From Candidatus Vogelbacteria bacterium (GTDB taxonomy: Bacteria; Patescibacteriota; Minisyncoccia; Phycocordibacterales; XYD1-FULL-46-19): a stretch of 64,000 nt of DNA. The notes beneath the pieces were generated by a model. The model was not told the DNA's origin and did no database searches. It saw nothing but the letters and a program-made list of their open reading frames with translations. Shown piece after piece: positions 2,257-10,483 of this stretch; positions within the stretch are counted from its first letter, which is position 1; each line of letters begins with the position of its first letter. The stretch covers positions 161,118-225,117 of the forward strand of contig JAIOOX010000002.1 in assembly GCA_021414225.1 (NCBI GenBank), given 5' to 3'. The position numbers and the translations under genes were made by a program.

Positions 2257-2895
2257 TTATGGTTTACGAACCACTAACCACAAAAGGCGATGGGGTTGCG
2301 GACCTACTGGCGTCGGCGCTAAGTCATTTTCCAGACGAGATTCCAGAACTTCCCAGTCACGGTACTGCCCGCAAATTTCTTCTTCTCGGAAAAACATGGG
2401 CGGATAGACATTGTGAATTTGTCTAATTACGCTTGCGCATTCGCTATCTAAATGAATATGGAGAAGATGTACCCCTCCCGAGACAGTGTGGTCCCGGCAC
2501 CGATCAACGAGTTCTCTCCATTTCTCGACTGAGAAATAGTGAGACAAGTTGAAAAGCGTAATCGCATCGTATTGACGGGTTAAGTCAGTCACTCCCACAT
2601 CCGCAACCCGTGCTTCAACAGAACCCTCTGGATAGAAACGTTTCCAAAAGGTAGCCACCTTTTGAAGATGTTCAACTGCTACACTCGACAAATCGAAAGC
2701 GTCTGCGTGCCAACCATGCCGTGCAAACCACAAAGCGTGTTGTCCTCGCCCCGAGCCAAGATCGAGTACTCGACCTTTCTTTCCATTGAAATAAGGGCCG
2801 AATGTCTCCAGTTGAGGTAAGATAGAAGCGCTTTCGTGGTCCTCTAAAGACTTTCGCCAATGGTCGTCAAAGAAGTTGGTTAGGTTAGGATCCAC
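2257..2895 (-). CDS. class I SAM-dependent methyltransferase (TehB-like fold)
   Basis: VLDLGSGRGQHALWFARHGW glycine-rich SAM motif, followed by an acidic motif-II-like DAF. 212 aa. Confidence 0.65.
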   Translation of the reverse strand: MDPNLTNFFDDHWRKSLEDHESASILPQLETFGPYFNGKKGRVLDLGSGRGQHALWFARHGWHADAFDLSSVAVEHLQKVATFWKRFYPEGSVEARVADVGVTDLTRQYDAITLFNLSHYFSVEKWRELVDRCRDHTVSGGVHLLHIHLDSECASVIRQIHNVYPPMFFREEEICGQYRDWEVLESRLENDLAPTPVGPQPHRLLWLVVRKP

Positions 2896-3009
2896 GACAC
2901 ACCTCCCTATATTTTCCCAAAAATCTCTATTAGTAGTTACTTGTTCGCTACCAATTAATCTTCACTTCTTTTACTTTTATATAATAAATATATAACTTAG
3001 TCAATACAG

Positions 3010-3082
3010 TGGACCTTAGCGGACTCGAACCGCTCGCCTCATCCATGCCATGGATGCGCTCTACCAGATGAGCTAAAGGCCC
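3010..3082 (-). tRNA. tRNA-Ala (anticodon GGC)
   Basis: The reverse complement folds as a cloverleaf: acceptor GGGCCTT/AAGGTCC with the G3:U70 Ala identity pair, D-arm GCTC/GAGC, anticodon stem CATCC/GGATG with loop ATGGCAT, and T-arm AGCGG-TTCGAGT-CCGCT. 73 nt. CCA is not encoded. Confidence 0.8.
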
Positions 3083-3088
3083 TTAACA

Positions 3089-3340
3089 TTGAAAATCTAT
3101 CATTTTTTTGCTACTGTTTCAATCATGATTAAAGATTTTTTAATGCGTAAAATGCTAAAAAGCCAGGGTGTACCCGAAGGGCAGATTGATCAACTCTTAA
3201 ATATTATAAATAAAAATCCAGAGTTATTTAAAAAAATAGCTGAAGAAGTTCAGGTTAAAGTAAAGGGAGGAAAACCACAGATGGAGGCTACGATGGAAGT
3301 AATGAAAAATTACGAAGCTGAACTTAAAAAATTAGTCTAA
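3089..3340 (+). CDS. small hypothetical protein; real start probably at an internal ATG near 3146/3155
   Basis: The ORF runs immediately after the tRNA and its stop overlaps the ychF start (TAATG). No family recognised. Confidence 0.3.
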   Translation: MKIYHFFATVSIMIKDFLMRKMLKSQGVPEGQIDQLLNIINKNPELFKKIAEEVQVKVKGGKPQMEATMEVMKNYEAELKKLV

Positions 3341-4419
3341 TGGGATTATCGATCGGAATTGTCGGGTTACCAAACGTTGGAAAATCGACGCTGTTTAATG
3401 CGCTGACTAAAAAAAGTGTCCCAGCGGAGAATTATCCGTTTTGTACTATTGATCCGTCAGTAGGTGTGGTCGCTGTACCAGATGAAAGGCTTTACAAACT
3501 AGCTGAGTTTTCTAAATCAGCCAAAACAGTGCCGGCGGCGGTTGAGTTTGTTGATATTGCTGGTCTGGTCAAAGGCGCTTCGGAAGGTGAAGGTCTGGGA
3601 AATCAATTTCTTCAACATATTCGCGAGGTAGATGCTATTGCCCAAGTGGTACGGATATTTGAAGATGGGAATATTACTCACGTGTCTGGAAAAGTCGATC
3701 CGATGTCTGATGTGGAGACTATCAACCTAGAACTCATTTTAGCTGATTTACAAACCATTACTAAACGACTAGGTAATATCAGTCGAGAAGTAAAAAGGGG
3801 TGATAAAGAAGCCGTGGCTGAAAATATTGTTTTAGAAAAAATTAAATCAGCCTTAGAAGCTGGTCAGCTAGCCTCGGCTGTCTCTTTAGATGACAAAGAG
3901 GAAATTTATCGACGCAATATGCATTTATTGTCGGCTAAACCGATTATGTATGTTTTGAACCAGAAATCTGGTTCACCTCAAGCAGATACAGCTCGGTTTG
4001 AAGAATTTTTAAAAACATCTGGAGCGAAATTTGTGACCGTCGATGCCAGAATTGAACACGAATTGTCAGAGTTGGAAGCGGGGGACAAAGAAGAATTCAA
4101 ACAAGAGTTGGGTGTAGAAAATGATGGGGTTAATGATTTGATTAAAACTAGTTATGACCTTTTAGGTCTGATGAGTTATTTTACGACCGGTGCAGACGAA
4201 ACACGTGGTTGGACTATTAAGAAAAATTCGACCGCCCCAGTGGCTGGTATGGCAATCCATACTGATTTTAAAGATAAGTTTATTCGCGCGGAGGTGGTCA
4301 ATTGGCAGAAACTTTTAGAAGCTGGATCGATGGGTAAAGCGCGAGAACTTGGTCTGGTTCGCACTGAAGGTAAAGAATATATTGTCCAAGACGGTGATTG
4401 TGTCGAGTTTAAAATCTAG
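3340..4419 (+). CDS. ychF: ribosome-binding ATPase YchF (Obg-family GTPase)
   Basis: MGLSIGIVGLPNVGKSTLFNALT P-loop, FCTIDPSVGVV, C-terminal TGS-like region. 359 aa. Confidence 0.9.
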   Translation: MGLSIGIVGLPNVGKSTLFNALTKKSVPAENYPFCTIDPSVGVVAVPDERLYKLAEFSKSAKTVPAAVEFVDIAGLVKGASEGEGLGNQFLQHIREVDAIAQVVRIFEDGNITHVSGKVDPMSDVETINLELILADLQTITKRLGNISREVKRGDKEAVAENIVLEKIKSALEAGQLASAVSLDDKEEIYRRNMHLLSAKPIMYVLNQKSGSPQADTARFEEFLKTSGAKFVTVDARIEHELSELEAGDKEEFKQELGVENDGVNDLIKTSYDLLGLMSYFTTGADETRGWTIKKNSTAPVAGMAIHTDFKDKFIRAEVVNWQKLLEAGSMGKARELGLVRTEGKEYIVQDGDCVEFKI

Positions 4420-4634
4420 ATAAAGGAAAAACCACAAAAATTTCAGGGTTTGAATAGATCGTTCGCTCGCCGCTACTAAACCTCCCTTTATTTTTGTGGT
4501 GGTCCATCCTGTCACTCCTAATAGAGAGAGGGTGAGTTGACCAGTCTTTCACCCCGAATATTTGTACGTTACCATCTTTTCATGGACCCTACAAACCTTA
4601 GTGATAATTTTATTTTTCTGTTAATTGTGGTATA

Positions 4635-5189
4635 GTGCGAATTATGAAAAATACACACATCCTCAAGTGGGCACTTATTTTAGGAATTATTATTGTGCTT
4701 AATCTCTTTGTGAATTTCTCCATTGCTTTAGTTTATGACGCTCCTGTTTGGGATAAATTTTGTCCACAACAACAAGTAACAGTACCTCCAGATACTCAGG
4801 AAAAATGTGTGGCGATTGGTGGTGGTTGGACAGAAAACATTAATTACAACCAAGCGATAACCAAACCAGTACCAGCTGACTTCAAAGAACCAAAAGGTTA
4901 CTGTGATCCAAACTTTACTTGCCAGAAAACATACACTGAAGCCAATAGTCTTTATAATCGAAATGTTTTTATTATTTTGGTGATTGCTGGGGTGGCTGCT
5001 TTAGGGGTTGGTTTTGCTTTAGGTTCTTACCCGGCTGTTTCTCTCGGTCTATCATTTGGTGGGGTGTTGTCATTTATTGTGGCTACTATCCGCTACTGGT
5101 CTGATATGGACGACTACTTACGAGTTATTATCCTAGGTTTGGCTCTGATAGCCCTAATTTGGTTGGGTATTAAAAAGATCAAAGAATAA
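4635..5189 (+). CDS. membrane protein, hypothetical; the ATG at 4644 is the likely start (leaderless)
   Basis: N-terminal TM plus two C-terminal TM helices. An extended -10 TGGTATAGT at 4628-4636 ends 7 nt before ATG 4644. Confidence 0.55.
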   Translation: MRIMKNTHILKWALILGIIIVLNLFVNFSIALVYDAPVWDKFCPQQQVTVPPDTQEKCVAIGGGWTENINYNQAITKPVPADFKEPKGYCDPNFTCQKTYTEANSLYNRNVFIILVIAGVAALGVGFALGSYPAVSLGLSFGGVLSFIVATIRYWSDMDDYLRVIILGLALIALIWLGIKKIKE

Positions 5190-5197
5190 ATTAAATT

Positions 5198-8071
5198 ATG
5201 GCCGTTCCGAAAAAGCTCACAGAGTACGACCACAAAAAGATTGAAAAAAAGTGGCAAACCACTTGGACGAAAACTGGTCTCTACAAAACTGAAGAAACTT
5301 CTAAAAAACCAAAGTGTTATGTTCTTGATATGTTTCCTTATCCATCGGGAGAAGGTCTACATGTAGGTCATCCAAAAGGTTATATAGCAACTGATATTTA
5401 TTCTCGTTTTAAAAGAATGAATGGTTTTAATGTTTTGCATCCGATGGGTTGGGATGCTTTTGGGTTACCGGCGGAAAATTATGCTATTAAAAACAAAGTC
5501 CACCCTAAATTAGCGGTTACCAAAAATATTAAACGGTACAAAGAACAGTTGTCGATGATTGGTTTCAATTATGATTGGAAGCGAGAAATCGATACAACCG
5601 ACCCTGAATATTACAAATGGACTCAATGGATTTTTTTACAGTTATACAAAAAAGGTTTAGCTTATGAATCTTTTGAACCAATCAATTGGTGTCCATCTTG
5701 TCAGACAGGCTTAGCTAACGAAGACGTAGAAGATGGAAAGTGTGAGCGTTGTAGTACGGTAGTAGAAAAAAAGCCAATGCGCCAGTGGGTGCTGAAAATT
5801 ACCAAATACGCTGATCGTTTACTGAAAGACTTGGAAACTTTAGATTGGCCAAATTCAATCAAAGAATCTCAGAAAAATTGGATTGGTAAAAGTGAGGGGG
5901 CGTTAATAAAATTTCCTCTAGCTGGTATTACTGGTGAAGCGGATGGTAAATATTCAGTAGAAGTCTTTACTACCAGACCAGATACTATTTTTGGTGTGAC
6001 TTTTGTGGCTATTGCTCCAGAGTTGGCTAAAAAATGGCAAGAGATGGGTTGGCAGACTGAAGACAAAGTAAAAAAATACATTGACCAAGTTTTGATTGAT
6101 CGGGCTAAAACTACCTTCAAAGATAACCCAGAGAAGACGGGTATTTTCGCTGGTGTCTACGCGATCAATCCAGCCAATCAAGAAAAAGTGCCAGTTTGGA
6201 TTACTAATTACGTGTTAGGTGACGTTGGGACTGGAGCGATTATGGCTGTGCCTGCCCACGATGAACGAGATTTTGAGTTTGCTAAAAAATATTTGTTACC
6301 TGTACAGCAGGTAGTAGTTCCAGTACGGATAGACAAAAAGAACCCACCACAGAGTGGTAAAAAAAATGTTGAAAGAAAAACCATTCATGCGTTGGTTGTT
6401 AACCCAAAAACAGGGAAACTTCTATGTCTTAAGTGGAAAAATTTTCCATGGACTGGTTTTGTGGTTGGTGGTGTAGATGAAGGAGAAGATATTGTGATCG
6501 CTGCTCGACGAGAAGTTCTTGAAGAGACGGGTTATAAAAATTTAAAATTAGTTCGTACTTTAGGAGGCTTGGTGCGTGGAGAATATTTTGCAGCTCACAA
6601 AGATGAAAACAGGATTGCCCTTTCTAATGCAATTTTATTTGAACTTCAAAACGAAGATCGTGAGCCTGTTTCTGATGAGGAGAGTGATAAACACGAGGTG
6701 GTGTGGCTTGATCCAAAAACCATAAATCAAGATAATTTTACTTGCGCGGAATTAGATTTGTGGTTTGCGCGTATAAATAATGAAAATGAAGCTTACTCTG
6801 GTTCAGGTGTATTGGTTAACTCTGGAAAATTCACTGGTTTGGAATCCGAGAAGTCTGTAAAAGATATTGTAAAAGCAGTAGGTGGAAAATTAACTTCTAC
6901 CTACAAACTAAAAGATTGGGTTTTTTCTCGACAGCGTTATTGGGGTGAGCCAATCCCGGTTATTCACTGTGGTAAGTGTGGGGTCGTTCCTGTTCCAGAG
7001 AAAGATTTACCGGTCAAATTACCAGAGGTAAAAAGTTATGCGCCAACTGGGACTGGTGAATCACCGCTCGCTGATATTGCTAAGTGGGTGAATACTAAAT
7101 GTCCGACTTGTAAGGGTCCAGCTAAACGAGAGACTAATACTATGCCTCAATGGGCCGGTTCTTCTTGGTATTATTTGCGGTTTATGGATCCTAAAAATAA
7201 AAAAACATTAGTTGATCCTAAAAAGGAAAAATACTGGGCACCAGTCGATATGTATGTTGGTGGTTCAGAACACGCGACCAGACACCTGATCTATGCTCGT
7301 TTTTGGCATAAGTTTTTATATGACATCAAAACAGTCTCAACTAAGGAGCCATTTAAGCGAATTGGTAAAAATTTAGGTTTAATCTTGGGCGCTGATGGCC
7401 GCAAAATGAGTAAACGTTGGGGGAATGTTATCAACCCGGATGATGTGATCAAACTTTATGGAGCTGACACTCTCCGTTTGTATGAAATGTTCATGGGACC
7501 TTTTGATCAAGAAATTGCTTGGAATACAGATAGTATGATTGGCAGTCGGAGGTTCCTAGAAAAGGTTTGGCGTCTGCAATCTAAGGTTACAACTAAAACT
7601 ACCTTGCCTGAAGCTACTGAAATTCTACTAAATCAAACTATTAAAAAAGTTGAAGCAGATATTGAGTCATTTAACTTTAATACTGCTGTTTCAACTCTAA
7701 TGATCTTAGTTAATAATTTGGAGACTTTGGAGTTAGTGCCAGTGTCAGCTTACCAAACCCTACTTTTACTACTGGCCCCCTTTTCACCCCATGTCGCCGA
7801 CGAGCTGTGGGGGTCTACTGGTAACAAGAAATCAATTCACTTAGCTGGCTGGCCAAAATATAATAAACGTAAGTTAGTATCTGATTTAGTGACTATTGTG
7901 GTGCAAGTTAATAGCAAGGTTCGTGATACTTTTGAAGCCAAAAGGGGATTAAGTCAGATTGAAATTGAAAAGCTGGCTATTAGCCGTGAGAGTGTTCAGA
8001 AATGGTTAACTGGTGAAGAATTTAAGAAGGTTATTTTTGTGCCAGATAAGCTTATCAACATAGTAGTCTAG
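5198..8071 (+). CDS. leuS: leucyl-tRNA synthetase with a reduced CP1 region and an embedded Nudix-fold insert
   Basis: PYPSGEGLHVGHPKGY (HIGH), TTRPDTIFG, GTGAIMAVPAHDERDFEFA, VFSRQRYWGEPIP, KMSKRWGN (KMSKS). Only about 80 aa separate TTRPDT from GTGAIMAVPAHDERD. A Nudix box GGVDEGEDIVIAARREVLEETGY lies at 6466-6534. Confidence 0.9.
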   Translation: MAVPKKLTEYDHKKIEKKWQTTWTKTGLYKTEETSKKPKCYVLDMFPYPSGEGLHVGHPKGYIATDIYSRFKRMNGFNVLHPMGWDAFGLPAENYAIKNKVHPKLAVTKNIKRYKEQLSMIGFNYDWKREIDTTDPEYYKWTQWIFLQLYKKGLAYESFEPINWCPSCQTGLANEDVEDGKCERCSTVVEKKPMRQWVLKITKYADRLLKDLETLDWPNSIKESQKNWIGKSEGALIKFPLAGITGEADGKYSVEVFTTRPDTIFGVTFVAIAPELAKKWQEMGWQTEDKVKKYIDQVLIDRAKTTFKDNPEKTGIFAGVYAINPANQEKVPVWITNYVLGDVGTGAIMAVPAHDERDFEFAKKYLLPVQQVVVPVRIDKKNPPQSGKKNVERKTIHALVVNPKTGKLLCLKWKNFPWTGFVVGGVDEGEDIVIAARREVLEETGYKNLKLVRTLGGLVRGEYFAAHKDENRIALSNAILFELQNEDREPVSDEESDKHEVVWLDPKTINQDNFTCAELDLWFARINNENEAYSGSGVLVNSGKFTGLESEKSVKDIVKAVGGKLTSTYKLKDWVFSRQRYWGEPIPVIHCGKCGVVPVPEKDLPVKLPEVKSYAPTGTGESPLADIAKWVNTKCPTCKGPAKRETNTMPQWAGSSWYYLRFMDPKNKKTLVDPKKEKYWAPVDMYVGGSEHATRHLIYARFWHKFLYDIKTVSTKEPFKRIGKNLGLILGADGRKMSKRWGNVINPDDVIKLYGADTLRLYEMFMGPFDQEIAWNTDSMIGSRRFLEKVWRLQSKVTTKTTLPEATEILLNQTIKKVEADIESFNFNTAVSTLMILVNNLETLELVPVSAYQTLLLLLAPFSPHVADELWGSTGNKKSIHLAGWPKYNKRKLVSDLVTIVVQVNSKVRDTFEAKRGLSQIEIEKLAISRESVQKWLTGEEFKKVIFVPDKLINIVV

Positions 8072-8118
8072 GTCCTACCCTTGACGTCTTTAATTAAAAA
8101 TGCTACAAATATAATATT

Positions 8119-9171
8119 ATGCCAAAAGGGAATTCTAAAGATTTAATCACTTTTAAACCCAAAGAGGTCGGTAAGAAGCTCTTGGGCCTTTTACCAGAAC
8201 GAGCCAGAGATATCCTGACTAAGCGTTATGGTTTGGGAAAAAGTGCTGAACACCTAACTCTTGAAGCGATTGGTGGAGAGTACGGTATCACTCGAGAAAG
8301 AGTACGTCAGATTGAAAATTTTGCTTTAAACGGCATCAAAAAATCTGCTGATTTTTCTAAATTTGAACCTATTTTTACTGAATTAAAACAAGTAATGAAT
8401 GATTTTGGTGGGGTGGTTCATGAATTAGAATTTTTGAATGCCTTAGCTAAAGATAAGAGTTCCCAAAACCACATCCACTTCTTACTGGTTATATCAGAAG
8501 CTTTCACTAAACTTAAAGAAGATGAGGATTTTCATCACCGTTGGACCACTGATAAGAATTTTGCTACTCGTATCCACAAGTCACTAACCAACTTGTGTAC
8601 CAACTTATCAGAAAAAGATCTGGTTTCAGAAACCCAATTGTTGGATTCTTTCTTGGTAGAACTTAAAGAAATTGCTGATACCGCTCGGGGCCGTGAAAAA
8701 GAAATGGCTCGTCGTTGGATCACCCTATCTAAAAGTCTAAATCAAAACCCATTAGGTGAATGGGGTTTGTCAAAATCACCAAACGTTCGCATGCGAGGTA
8801 TTCGTGACTACGCCTTCTTGGTTTTACGACAACATGGCTCACCAATGCACTTCAATGAAGTAGCAAAAGGGATTGAAAAATTATTTGGTAAGATTGCTCA
8901 CCCAGCCACTTGTCACAATGAATTGATTAAAGATAAGCGTTTTGTTTTAGTAGGCCGAGGTTTGTACGCTTTAGCTGAATGGGGTTATAACCCTGGAGTA
9001 GTAGCCGACGTTGTTCGGTCTATTCTTAAAAAAGAATCACCTCTAACTAAAGATGAAATTATTGCTCGAGTGATGAAAGAGCGTTATGTTAAGGAAAATA
9101 CTATCTTAGTTAATCTACAAAACCCTAAATTGTTTAAAAAAGATTCTCAAGGTCGCTACAGTATTGTTTAA
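8119..9171 (+). CDS. sigma-70 region-4-like HTH protein with a long C-terminal extension
   Basis: N-terminal LPERARDILTKRYGLGKSAEHLTLEAIGGEYGITRERVRQIENFAL matches the sigma-70 r4 pattern. The remaining 250 aa are not recognised. Confidence 0.55.
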   Translation: MPKGNSKDLITFKPKEVGKKLLGLLPERARDILTKRYGLGKSAEHLTLEAIGGEYGITRERVRQIENFALNGIKKSADFSKFEPIFTELKQVMNDFGGVVHELEFLNALAKDKSSQNHIHFLLVISEAFTKLKEDEDFHHRWTTDKNFATRIHKSLTNLCTNLSEKDLVSETQLLDSFLVELKEIADTARGREKEMARRWITLSKSLNQNPLGEWGLSKSPNVRMRGIRDYAFLVLRQHGSPMHFNEVAKGIEKLFGKIAHPATCHNELIKDKRFVLVGRGLYALAEWGYNPGVVADVVRSILKKESPLTKDEIIARVMKERYVKENTILVNLQNPKLFKKDSQGRYSIV

Positions 9172-9176
9172 ACAAA

Positions 9177-9213
9177 AAGAGCTCAGCTAAAAAATAGCTG
9201 AGCTCTTTTTGTT
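9177..9213 (+). terminator. rho-independent terminator
   Basis: AAGAGCTCAGCT-AAAAAAT-AGCTGAGCTCTT followed by TTTGTT, 6 nt after the stop at 9171. Confidence 0.65.
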
Positions 9214-9241
9214 ATCATTTAAATCGTGTATAATTTAAATT

Positions 9242-10483
9242 ATGTCGATTTTCTCTCTCTGGGACACCTACCTAGATTTGTTGCCTAAAATTCTGCCATT
9301 TTTCTATTATTTATCACCACTGATTTCTTGTCTGATTATTTGGCGGTTGTATCTCTACTATATTCGTTATGGGTTTGTAAAAAAGATGGATTGGGTGTTA
9401 TTGGAAATAAAAATGCCTAAAGAAATATCCAAAACACCGTCTGGTATGGAGATTATTTTCTCCAACTTGCATCAAACTGGTGGTGGTAGTCTGATTGATA
9501 AATTTATCAAAGGCAAGGTCCGCTCCTGGTTTTCTTTAGAGATGTGTTCTTTTGGTGGAGATGTTAAATTCTTTGTTCGGTTAGAAAAAAAGTTTCGTGA
9601 CCTATTTGAAGCAGCTGCCTATTCTCAATATCCAGAGATTGAAATTCACGAGGCGGAAGATTATGTCCACAAAATACCTTATGGGGTTGTGGAAGCTAAG
9701 TGGGATATGTGGGGAGCCGTACTAAAATTTACTAAAGCTGATCCTTATCCAATTAAGACTTATATTGATTATGGTTTAGATAAAAAAGAAAAGGACGCCT
9801 TGGTGAGTGTTGACCCTCTAACTCCAATTATTGAATTTTTAGGTTCAGTCAAACCAGGTGAACAAGTTTGGGTTCAGATACCGATTATGGCTGCTCGTGA
9901 TTTAAAACAAAAACCAGGCGGTAAATGGTATGAGAAAGAAGGTTGGAAAAAAGAAGGAGAAGCCCTTGTTAACGATATTATGAAGCGTGACGCCAAAACG
10001 AAAGCCTCAAAACAGTTATCAGCTACTGGTTTTCCAATTATCCCGTCTTTATCTAAAGGAGAACAGGATGTAATTGAAGCGATTGAGCGCAGTATCTCTA
10101 AGCTTGGTTTTGAAGCTGGTATTAGGATGATTTATTTTGCTCCAGAAGGTAAAATTAATAACAACTACAAGGGAGCGATTTTGAGTATGTTTAAACAATT
10201 TAACTCCCAGAATCTGAATGGTTTTGATCGGGAATTTGATACCAGCTTTGATTATCCTTGGCAGGATTTTATGGGTCTACGTTTAGCTAAAATGAAGGCC
10301 GACTTATTTAACTCTTATCGGTTACGGAGTCTGTTTTGGATGCCTTATCCTAGTAAAACTTTTGTTTTAAACACTGAAGAATTAGCTACTCTATTTCATT
10401 TTCCGGGGGCTATTTCTCAAACTCCAACCTTTGGTCGGATTATGTCTAAGCGAGCGGAACCACCACCAAACTTACCAGTATAA
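9242..10483 (+). CDS. membrane-anchored hypothetical protein
   Basis: Two N-terminal TM helices. A TGTGTATAAT-type -10 ends next to the ATG (leaderless). No family recognised. Confidence 0.5.
   Translation: MSIFSLWDTYLDLLPKILPFFYYLSPLISCLIIWRLYLYYIRYGFVKKMDWVLLEIKMPKEISKTPSGMEIIFSNLHQTGGGSLIDKFIKGKVRSWFSLEMCSFGGDVKFFVRLEKKFRDLFEAAAYSQYPEIEIHEAEDYVHKIPYGVVEAKWDMWGAVLKFTKADPYPIKTYIDYGLDKKEKDALVSVDPLTPIIEFLGSVKPGEQVWVQIPIMAARDLKQKPGGKWYEKEGWKKEGEALVNDIMKRDAKTKASKQLSATGFPIIPSLSKGEQDVIEAIERSISKLGFEAGIRMIYFAPEGKINNNYKGAILSMFKQFNSQNLNGFDREFDTSFDYPWQDFMGLRLAKMKADLFNSYRLRSLFWMPYPSKTFVLNTEELATLFHFPGAISQTPTFGRIMSKRAEPPPNLPV

Follow-up and report, generated by a model that had tools for sequence, protein, structure and literature searches.

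A Nudix hydrolase-type domain nested within the retained CP1 editing domain of a leucyl-tRNA synthetase from Candidatus Vogelbacteria

When a leucyl-tRNA synthetase (LeuRS) is found to carry a Nudix hydrolase-type domain in its interior, does the extra domain stand in for the CP1 editing domain or is it added to it? The leuS gene in a stretch of 64,000 nucleotides from a Candidatus Vogelbacteria bacterium (assembly GCA_021414225.1, contig JAIOOX010000002.1, positions 161,118 to 225,117; hereafter "the window") raises this question, as a first-pass annotation made from the DNA letters had described its product as a LeuRS that otherwise lacks CP1 and in which the Nudix domain could substitute for the lost editing activity. 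We find that CP1 is present and that the Nudix domain sits within it, in an arrangement that is common in bacteria of the candidate phyla radiation. The module is an ancient and selected accessory that is probably catalytically active. What it may act on, and why it should be tethered to a synthetase, we weigh below. The gene itself is as follows.

5198 to 8071, forward strand: leuS, one unbroken reading frame of 957 codons (957 aa), encoding a bacterial-type leucyl-tRNA synthetase with a nested Nudix module.

That a Nudix-fold domain is embedded in this protein, and that this is no textbook LeuRS architecture, the first-pass annotation had recognized correctly, and the range it gave (6350 to 6790, i.e., aa 385-531) covers the domain. 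The parts of the insert are these.

6317 to 6787, forward strand (aa 374-530): whole insert relative to canonical LeuRS, here called "site A," delimited by a two-stretch alignment to Thermus LeuRS (1h3n).
6311 to 6373, forward strand (aa 372-392): leader of the Nudix module, VVVPVRIDKKNPPQSGKKNVE, which travels with the module across contexts.
6350 to 6793, forward strand (aa 385-532; Pfam core aa 394-510): Nudix domain, from PF00293, AlphaFold2 (AF2), Foldseek and a profile search.
6467 to 6535, forward strand (aa 424-446): Nudix box GX5EX7REUXEEXGU, GGVDEGEDIVIAARREVLEETGY, an exact regular-expression match.
6584 to 6613, forward strand (aa 463-472): subfamily signature and putative X-loop YFAAHKDENR, from conservation, 17 aa past the box.

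Site A spans 157 aa in the window LeuRS and 12 aa in Thermus (residues 363-374), a net insert of ~145 aa, and the point of insertion is a CP1 surface hairpin just past the helix that follows the editing-site Asp motif. Over aa 394-510 the protein matches PF00293 with 49.9 bits (E 4e-13), and the excised insert does so with 54 bits, against a gathering cut-off of 21.1. An AF2 model of aa 381-535, built from a 73-row alignment, has a mean predicted local distance difference test score (pLDDT) of 90.5, and Foldseek returned 446 matches in the PDB at E <= 1e-3, the top 50 being Nudix hydrolases without exception (probability 1.00). The Nudix identity of the insert is far beyond chance. It is also the sole Nudix domain of the 64-kb window.

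Conservation was assessed across 77 Nudix-bearing LeuRS relatives (59-74% identity). In these the box residues G424, G425, E439, E443, T444 and G445 are kept in 77/77, R438 and E442 in 76/77 and E430 in 75/77. Neither of the outcomes the first-pass annotation had named as fatal to its Nudix assignment—box residues unconserved in orthologs, or a fold other than Nudix—was found. Long-term purifying selection has acted on the domain, and it extends beyond the box. Residues R393, W418, H467, K468, N471, R472, E495, W503 and E518 are near-invariant and specific to the subfamily; within the YFAAHKDENR signature, position 463 is aromatic in all 77 sequences (Y in 60, F in 17), H467 is kept in 73/77, and K468, N471 and R472 in 77/77. 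At least one strict GX5EX7REUXEEXGU box occurs in 110 of the 120 closest relatives. From the conservation of the box, the module is predicted to have metal-dependent pyrophosphohydrolase activity.

Three other accounts of how such an insert might have arisen were considered and rejected. An intein or comparable mobile insertion does not fit the boundaries (VVPVRID... and ...NENEAYSG), which lack the Cys/Ser ... His-Asn junction residues. A mobile element is disfavoured by a repeat scan, in which no target-site-like or notable flanking repeats were found, by the absence of a phage-genome homologue and by the G+C content, which is level along the whole leuS gene, where composition shows no anomaly. 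A defence-island reading found no match among the PADLOC models.

Is the editing domain really missing? The alignment to Thermus thermophilus LeuRS indicates that it is not, and its parts can be placed on both sides of the insert.

5873 to 6340, forward strand (aa 226-381): N-terminal three quarters of the CP1 editing domain, Pfam PF13603 profile positions 1-148 of 185, E 1e-56.
5969 to 5986, forward strand (aa 258-263): threonine-rich editing motif TTRPDT, aligned to Thermus VFTTRPDT.
6227 to 6280, forward strand (aa 344-361): editing-site motif GTGAIMAVPAHDERDFEF, including conserved Asp residues, aligned to the Thermus motif.
6794 to 6922, forward strand (aa 533-575): C-terminal part of CP1 and return strand, aligning to Thermus LeuRS from residue 375.

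Window residues 221-373 correspond to Thermus 216-362 without large gaps, and the alignment resumes after the insert, with aa 531-591 on Thermus 375-439; the Pfam scan likewise finds a second stretch of PF13603 after the insert. The editing residues are invariant in an alignment of 78 LeuRS sequences: T258, T259, R260 and T263 of the threonine-rich motif, and G344, T345, G346, H354, D355, R357 and D358 of the editing-site motif. Beyond the insert, G537 and S542 are likewise invariant. With CP1 present and collinear with that of Thermus, the Nudix domain is therefore nested in an intact editing domain and does not replace it.

The first-pass annotation had argued that the roughly 80 residues between TTRPDT and GTG..HD..D leave no room for CP1. 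Both motifs lie in the first Thermus-collinear stretch at the Thermus spacing, and they form the two halves of the editing pocket, not the borders of CP1. The gap, of ~86 residues, is the normal spacing inside CP1 and is therefore no evidence for the absence of the domain. Every motif that the annotation had located—TTRPDT, GTGAIMAVPAHDERDFEF, the Nudix box GGVDEGEDIVIAARREVLEETGY, SGVLVNSGKFTGL (aa 536-548) and VFSRQRYWGEPIP (aa 575-587)—was found where it had placed it; what the PF13603 match, the collinearity and the invariant editing residues overturn is the claim of a missing CP1, and since CP1 is retained, a Nudix domain that substitutes for lost editing has no basis. This corrects a tempting misreading, and organisms with such a LeuRS, having kept their editing domain, should not be scored as editing-deficient.

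The remainder of the protein is that of an ordinary bacterial LeuRS, with the following landmarks.

5360 to 5374, forward strand (aa 55-59): HIGH-type signature HVGHP of the class I synthetic site, from motif position and conservation.
7403 to 7417, forward strand (aa 736-740): KMSKS-type loop KMSKR, from motif position and conservation.
7628 to 7954, forward strand (aa 811-919): anticodon-binding domain, Pfam PF08264, E 4e-21.

In the same 78-sequence alignment H55, G57 and H58 are invariant, as are K739 and R740, with K736, M737 and S738 at least 90% conserved. The protein scores 992.9 bits against TIGR00396 (leuS_bact, NCBIfam; cut-off 548.4), which places it in bacterial leuS. Its full-length AF2 model (pLDDT 88.1, predicted template-modelling score 0.78) superposes on the Thermus, E. 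coli and Neisseria enzymes with a target-normalised template-modelling (TM) score of 0.8, the values for the LeuRS structures 2bte, 5omw and 4aq7 being 0.81-0.82. The window LeuRS is identical to P0005, a protein of a Candidatus Vogelbacteria metagenome-assembled genome (MAG) on a 409-kb contig. The gene encodes a bacterial LeuRS in which nothing essential is missing: synthetic site, intact CP1 and anticodon-binding domain are all in place, and leucylation and post-transfer editing are predicted for it from sequence.

How widespread is the arrangement? PF00293 and PF13603 occur together in 119 of the 120 best LeuRS relatives retrieved with the full-length protein (59-74% identity); the MAGs they come from, where named, are those of Vogelbacteria, Taylorbacteria, Paceibacterota, Pacebacteria, Parcubacteria and Patescibacteria. 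When each species was represented by one genome, the fusion turned up in Saccharibacteria, Paceibacterota, Parcubacteria and Moraniibacteriota. Searched exhaustively with HMMER, 1.84 billion cluster representatives yielded a compact clade that lies for the most part within proteins of LeuRS length, with 413 matches at E <= 1e-3, of which 201 reach E <= 1e-10; among the best 150 of these matches, 43 proteins are at least 800 aa long, 67, including many LeuRS fragments, measure 250-799 aa, and 40 fall below 250 aa. All such counts rest on clustered databases and on MAGs, part of which are fragmentary or mis-binned. The impression of rarity given by a word-index search with the insert alone, which returned four proteins, was discarded in light of the full-length and exhaustive searches as a limit of that search's sensitivity. 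One bacterial-type LeuRS-Nudix protein (P0023) is labelled "Candidatus Nanoarchaeia archaeon," which is probably a binning or labelling error.

The number and placement of Nudix domains vary among relatives, which carry one to three copies per LeuRS at two CP1 loops, site A and a second that is short in the window protein.

5924 to 5953, forward strand (aa 243-252): "site B," a hairpin loop just before TTRPDT, short in the window LeuRS and poorly ordered in its model (241-250 block pLDDT 66).

When the Nudix layout was mapped against the LeuRS motifs in 271 proteins, 158 had the window type (site A only), 12 had one domain each at sites B and A, 11 had two at site B and one at site A, and five had two at site B and none at site A. 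The several copies of a single protein share only 24-45% identity, and in clustering the copies group by position; at such low identity they are therefore old paralogues and not recent duplications. The second copy at site B (class B2) has a variant box without the first Glu and the Arg. A leader of ~20 residues, (I/V)P-x-(F/R)-I-D-x-x-N-P-P-x-x-G-K-K-x-V-E-R, precedes the Nudix domain at both sites and likewise where it stands free, in P0002 and P0136; it is part of the module and not of LeuRS.

The same loops also accept other enzymes. Besides one or two more Nudix domains, site B hosts a serine hydrolase or a DUF559 domain in relatives, and a third insertion site ("site C"), after RQRYWG, also holds hydrolases in some of them. 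Specifically, the serine hydrolase PF06821 lies at site B or after RQRYWG in P0024, P0042, P0073 and P0101, HAD_2 lies after RQRYWG in P0020 and P0106, and a DUF559/Vsr-like endonuclease domain lies at site B in P0059. Together with P0155, long LeuRS relatives of this group, with extra hydrolase-type domains in the three hot-spot loops, reach 1095-1558 aa; P0024 has three Nudix domains, two of them at site B beside a serine hydrolase and the third at site A.

Several individual loci depart further from the common layout. At locus L024 leuS is split into two open reading frames (ORFs; 2529-5669 and 7000-8169), ~1.3 kb apart with another ORF between them and the break near site C, and the N-terminal ORF has three site-B Nudix domains of another subfamily (NUDIX_4/Nudt16-like) besides its site-A Nudix. 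At L015 an extra in-frame leuS segment (5820-6437) matches HAD_2 weakly, short of the Pfam cut-off, and at L014 an extra in-frame segment of 124 aa directly after the Nudix domain (5421-5792) matched no Pfam family.

If the module were bound to the geometry of CP1, it would be expected only there; the same clade is found elsewhere. Five archaeal-type class II prolyl-tRNA synthetases (ProRS; P0232 and P0273-P0276, 641-674 aa) carry it between the anticodon-binding and C-terminal domains, with the signature F-x-A-x-H-K-x-x-N-R, and some of these copies are degenerate. The ProRS relatives of this Nudix-bearing clade measure ~480 aa and are labelled Nanoarchaeota or Woesearchaeota. Two of the ProRS genes were located as follows.

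Locus L079, 5593 to 7524: ProRS-Nudix gene.
Locus L080, 3720 to 5744: ProRS-Nudix gene.

At L080 a free-standing Nudix gene lies two genes upstream of the ProRS-Nudix gene and a MazG gene lies downstream. The possibility that ProRS-Nudix P0274 and LeuRS-Nudix P0034 share one contig, suggested by the length of 11,929 bp listed for the contig of each, was ruled out, L079 being without a LeuRS. The Nudix clade is thus linked to synthetases in general and not to CP1 geometry.

The clade also has free-standing members. In GCA_040384245.1 a 163-aa protein (P0002), 50% identical to the window domain, is encoded ~580 bp upstream of a Nudix-less leuS of 807 aa, in a window-like neighbourhood of YchF ... 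leuS, sigma70_r4, DUF8128 and YceG.

Locus L001 (GCA_040384245.1), 6001 to 6492: free-standing Nudix gene, P0002.
Locus L001, 7071 to 9494: Nudix-less leuS.

A second, unrelated Nudix gene lies at the same locus (3530-3976). Other free-standing members stand away from leuS (L002/L003), and two proteins, P0233 (467 aa) and P0269 (379 aa), consist of two Nudix domains of this clade with no synthetase domain, the two copies in P0269 being 75% identical. A LeuRS that is 73% identical to that of the window and has the same gene neighbourhood (P0037) lacks the Nudix domain, with a ~30-aa connector at site A; the module is dispensable. Given the Nudix-less P0037, the free-standing P0002 and the insertion in ProRS, the module is thus an accessory that is mobile between contexts and repeatedly associated with synthetases. 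For any biochemical comparison, the window LeuRS, P0037 and the free-standing neighbour gene are ready-made controls.

What, then, might the module do? Many synthetases make diadenosine tetraphosphate (Ap4A) from their aminoacyl-adenylates, and because of this we rank first, though with less than even confidence, an accessory Ap4A-hydrolase/NudH-like enzyme that is tethered to the synthetase and does not replace editing. Under this proposal, a ~20-aa leader and a ~130-aa Nudix pyrophosphohydrolase domain, spliced in frame into a CP1 surface hairpin, would add to editing instead of replacing it. Through the Glu cluster E439/E442/E443 and a divalent metal the domain would cleave dinucleoside polyphosphates (Ap4A, Ap3A) or closely related adenine nucleotide-pyrophosphate by-products, compounds that aminoacyl-tRNA synthetases make from their own aminoacyl-adenylates, and the covalent tether would keep the hydrolase at the site and in the stoichiometry of by-product production. 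The data show the architecture, the intact CP1, the Nudix fold, the conserved box, the wide distribution and the dispensability of the module; that it is active, which kind of substrate it cleaves and what the tether gains are the parts of this proposal that we infer.

Several observations are consistent with it. In a profile search of solved structures, the Ap4A hydrolase of lupin (1f3y/1jkn) came out at E 1.4e-8 and that of Aquifex (3i7u) at E 4e-8; with the decapping effectors AvrM14-A/B (E ~1e-8) these are the best matches. Foldseek neighbours include RppH with Ap4A (7sp3), the Aquifex Ap4A hydrolase 3i7u, the diadenosine polyphosphatase Rv2985 and MutT1. The N-terminal ER-x-N-V of the module aligns with RRNVG of the lupin Ap4A hydrolase. 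Nudix specificity loops offer a further guide: ApnA hydrolases have an X-loop tyrosine ~17 aa past the box, ADP-ribose pyrophosphatases a conserved Pro ~15-16 aa past it, and NADH pyrophosphatase (NudC) a downstream SQPWPFPxS motif (PMC5389931). By sequence, Y/F463, a single residue 17 aa past the box, falls at the position of the ApnA-hydrolase tyrosine. The Pro is absent: at positions 461 and 462 the window protein has Gly followed by Glu, and its relatives have Ala or Gly followed by Glu. The NudC motif is absent from aa 447-535. The domain is acidic (net charge -6, pI 5.2; class mean -4.2), which may suit a small-molecule substrate better than RNA and argues weakly against RNA binding.

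A number of points weigh against this assignment. No curated Nudix subfamily of NCBIfam was reached; the best, RppH (NF001938), has a cut-off of 116 bits, and the domain scored 24.8, over the box only. A PDB search with the single sequence gave weak NUDT1/MTH1 matches only, and the profile search, if more informative, was still weak. The structural neighbours in Foldseek, 14-24% identical, are a mixture of MutT, RppH, Ap4A and ADP-ribose enzymes, which makes the substrate assignment weak, and a lone aromatic residue, even a conserved one, is not diagnostic. Nor does LeuRS rank with the strongest known producers of Ap4A. Finally, the same loops in relatives hold serine-hydrolase, HAD and DUF559 domains and one other Nudix type, and permissive loops that collect hydrolases fit these extra domains at least as well as a link to Ap4A.

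This last point leads to the alternative that survives best, which we regard as possible but less probable than a tethered Ap4A hydrolase: a hitch-hiking house-cleaning enzyme, i.e., a general MutT/NTPase or NDP-X pyrophosphatase with no mechanistic link to leucylation, lodged in the permissive loops of the LeuRS of genome-reduced Patescibacteria, where fusion to an essential, constitutively expressed gene would secure the expression and retention of small hydrolases. It would account for the presence of the unrelated PF06821, HAD_2 and DUF559 in the same three loops (and, in L024, of three Nudix domains of another subfamily), for the dispensability seen in P0037, for the free-standing copies of L002/L003 and for single-sequence PDB matches that are best to NUDT1/MTH1 with no subfamily assignable. 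A purely opportunistic fusion would, however, be expected over many host proteins, and the clade is found overwhelmingly inside synthetases (LeuRS at three sites, and ProRS). Moreover, the free-standing P0002 adjoins leuS, and up to three diverged paralogues have been retained over the long term in one LeuRS.

A substrate on RNA is somewhat less likely again. Here the Nudix domain would act as an RppH-like remover of 5' pyrophosphate or of Np4A/NAD caps, or would repair modified tRNA 3' ends, for instance an A76 lesion (pyrophosphorylated or ADP-ribosylated) presented at the neighbouring editing pocket. Sites A and B each lie, in sequence, within ~15 residues of editing-pocket motifs, and both hosts, LeuRS and ProRS, bind tRNA. 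RppH and RNA-decapping Nudix enzymes (AvrM14, Dcp2) are among the closest structural or profile matches, and the best NCBIfam match, though far below its cut-off, is RppH. Yet the net acidity of the domain speaks weakly against this proposal, and the module is not always near the CP1 pocket, since some LeuRS carry it at site C and ProRS has it after the anticodon-binding domain and before the C-terminal one. Furthermore, none of the PADLOC defence models matched, and there is no direct evidence of such a tRNA lesion in these organisms.

More speculatively, and we consider this doubtful, the synthetases of Patescibacteria and of some DPANN-like archaea may scaffold a dedicated hydrolase module, in which the Nudix domain is at times joined by a serine hydrolase, a HAD phosphatase or both, for a third, hitherto unrecognised quality-control or defence reaction beside the editing pocket, beyond mere house-cleaning. 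Such a reaction might strip the tRNA 3' end of pyrophosphoryl, ADP-ribosyl or Np4 adducts, or destroy adenylate-mimic toxins directed at the synthetase.

Improbable in our judgement is a non-catalytic Nudix fold that serves LeuRS as a structural, regulatory or ligand-sensing module. The class B2 box lacks the first Glu and the Arg, some ProRS copies are degenerate, and Nudix-fold proteins without enzymatic activity are known (PMC5389931), all of which could speak for it. The full box is nevertheless kept in 75-77 of the 77 site-A class sequences as well as in the window protein, which would be unexpected for a purely structural role. As for the original proposal, that CP1 was lost and that the Nudix domain hydrolyses mis-activated aminoacyl-adenylates or Ap4A instead of editing, we give it almost no weight: the Nudix domain is indeed embedded in LeuRS, but the premise is refuted by a CP1 that is present, collinear with Thermus and invariant in its editing residues, the close relative P0037 does without the Nudix domain, and Nudix enzymes normally cleave a pyrophosphate bond, which an acyl-adenylate does not have, so that adenylate hydrolysis would be chemically atypical for them.

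Comparison with characterized systems places the window protein between several of them. It shares with canonical bacterial LeuRS (Thermus 1H3N/2BTE; E. coli 4AQ7/4ARC) the order of its domains, down to the anticodon-binding and C-terminal ones, as well as HIGH, KMSKS and identically spaced editing motifs, and departs from them where the 12-residue loop of Thermus (363-374) is replaced by the 157-residue Nudix-bearing segment; among the structures matched, no solved LeuRS has an enzyme domain at site A. With Nudix Ap4A hydrolases and NudH/RppH (lupin 1F3Y/1JKN, Aquifex 3I7U, E. coli RppH 7SP3) the module has in common the fold, the full box, the N-terminal R-x-N-V strand and an aromatic residue at the putative X-loop position. 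It differs from them in being 14-24% identical and below subfamily cut-offs, in its own YFAAHKD-NR signature and ~20-aa leader, and in being nested and acidic.

Synthetases with an extra catalytic domain have precedents, namely the ProRS-YbaK and TrpRS-AlaX fusions (PMC4828885). An isoleucyl-tRNA synthetase (IleRS) with a GNAT domain is represented by NCBIfam NF040702. As in the window protein, a second catalytic domain is covalently joined to the synthetase in all three; in those cases, however, the addition is terminal and an acyl-transfer or deacylase domain, whereas here a pyrophosphatase-type domain is nested in the editing domain, and the LeuRS Nudix comes in one to three copies, sometimes joined by an alpha/beta-hydrolase or HAD domain. 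The LeuRS of Mycoplasma mobile (3ZIU, rank 50 in the structure search), which is without CP1, is the type that the first-pass annotation had in mind, and the window protein, unlike it, keeps CP1. Aquifex aeolicus reportedly has a split alpha/beta LeuRS, and its editing-domain structures 3PZ5/3O0A were among the matches in the structure-sequence comparison; the split leuS of L024 can be likened to it, whereas the window gene is unsplit.

Full-text searches, including searches on candidate phyla radiation and Patescibacteria, found no paper on a LeuRS-Nudix or synthetase-Nudix architecture, subscription-only literature lying outside their scope. The fusion itself is visible in databases, both domains being already listed in the Pfam annotation of database relatives. 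While synthetases with added domains and Nudix hydrolases are each known, the nesting in the editing domain, the multiplicity and the co-occurrence with other hydrolases are unusual. Synthetase proofreading domains are among the best-studied modules, and a second, apparently active enzyme inside CP1 is absent from the current picture of them; this one is conserved over a large bacterial radiation, occurs in up to three copies and is echoed in class II ProRS. If the substrate were of the Ap4A type, the window LeuRS would be a natural synthetase that destroys its own alarmone by-product and would bear on the debate over Ap4A as signal or damage. If it were an RNA or tRNA end, the module would represent a new kind of tRNA quality control.

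The surroundings of the gene are themselves recurrent. In the window (3340-10483) the order is YchF GTPase, small membrane protein, leuS, sigma70_r4/HARE-HTH protein and DUF8128 protein, followed by YceG. At L004 the leuS-Nudix gene (4969-7738) is divided into ~ten short called genes in shifting frames, with adjoining genes broken too, which looks like long-read assembly frameshift errors and not a pseudogene. The gene order of the window recurs there and also in L001 and L081, and is conserved across distant Patescibacteria with or without a Nudix domain in leuS.

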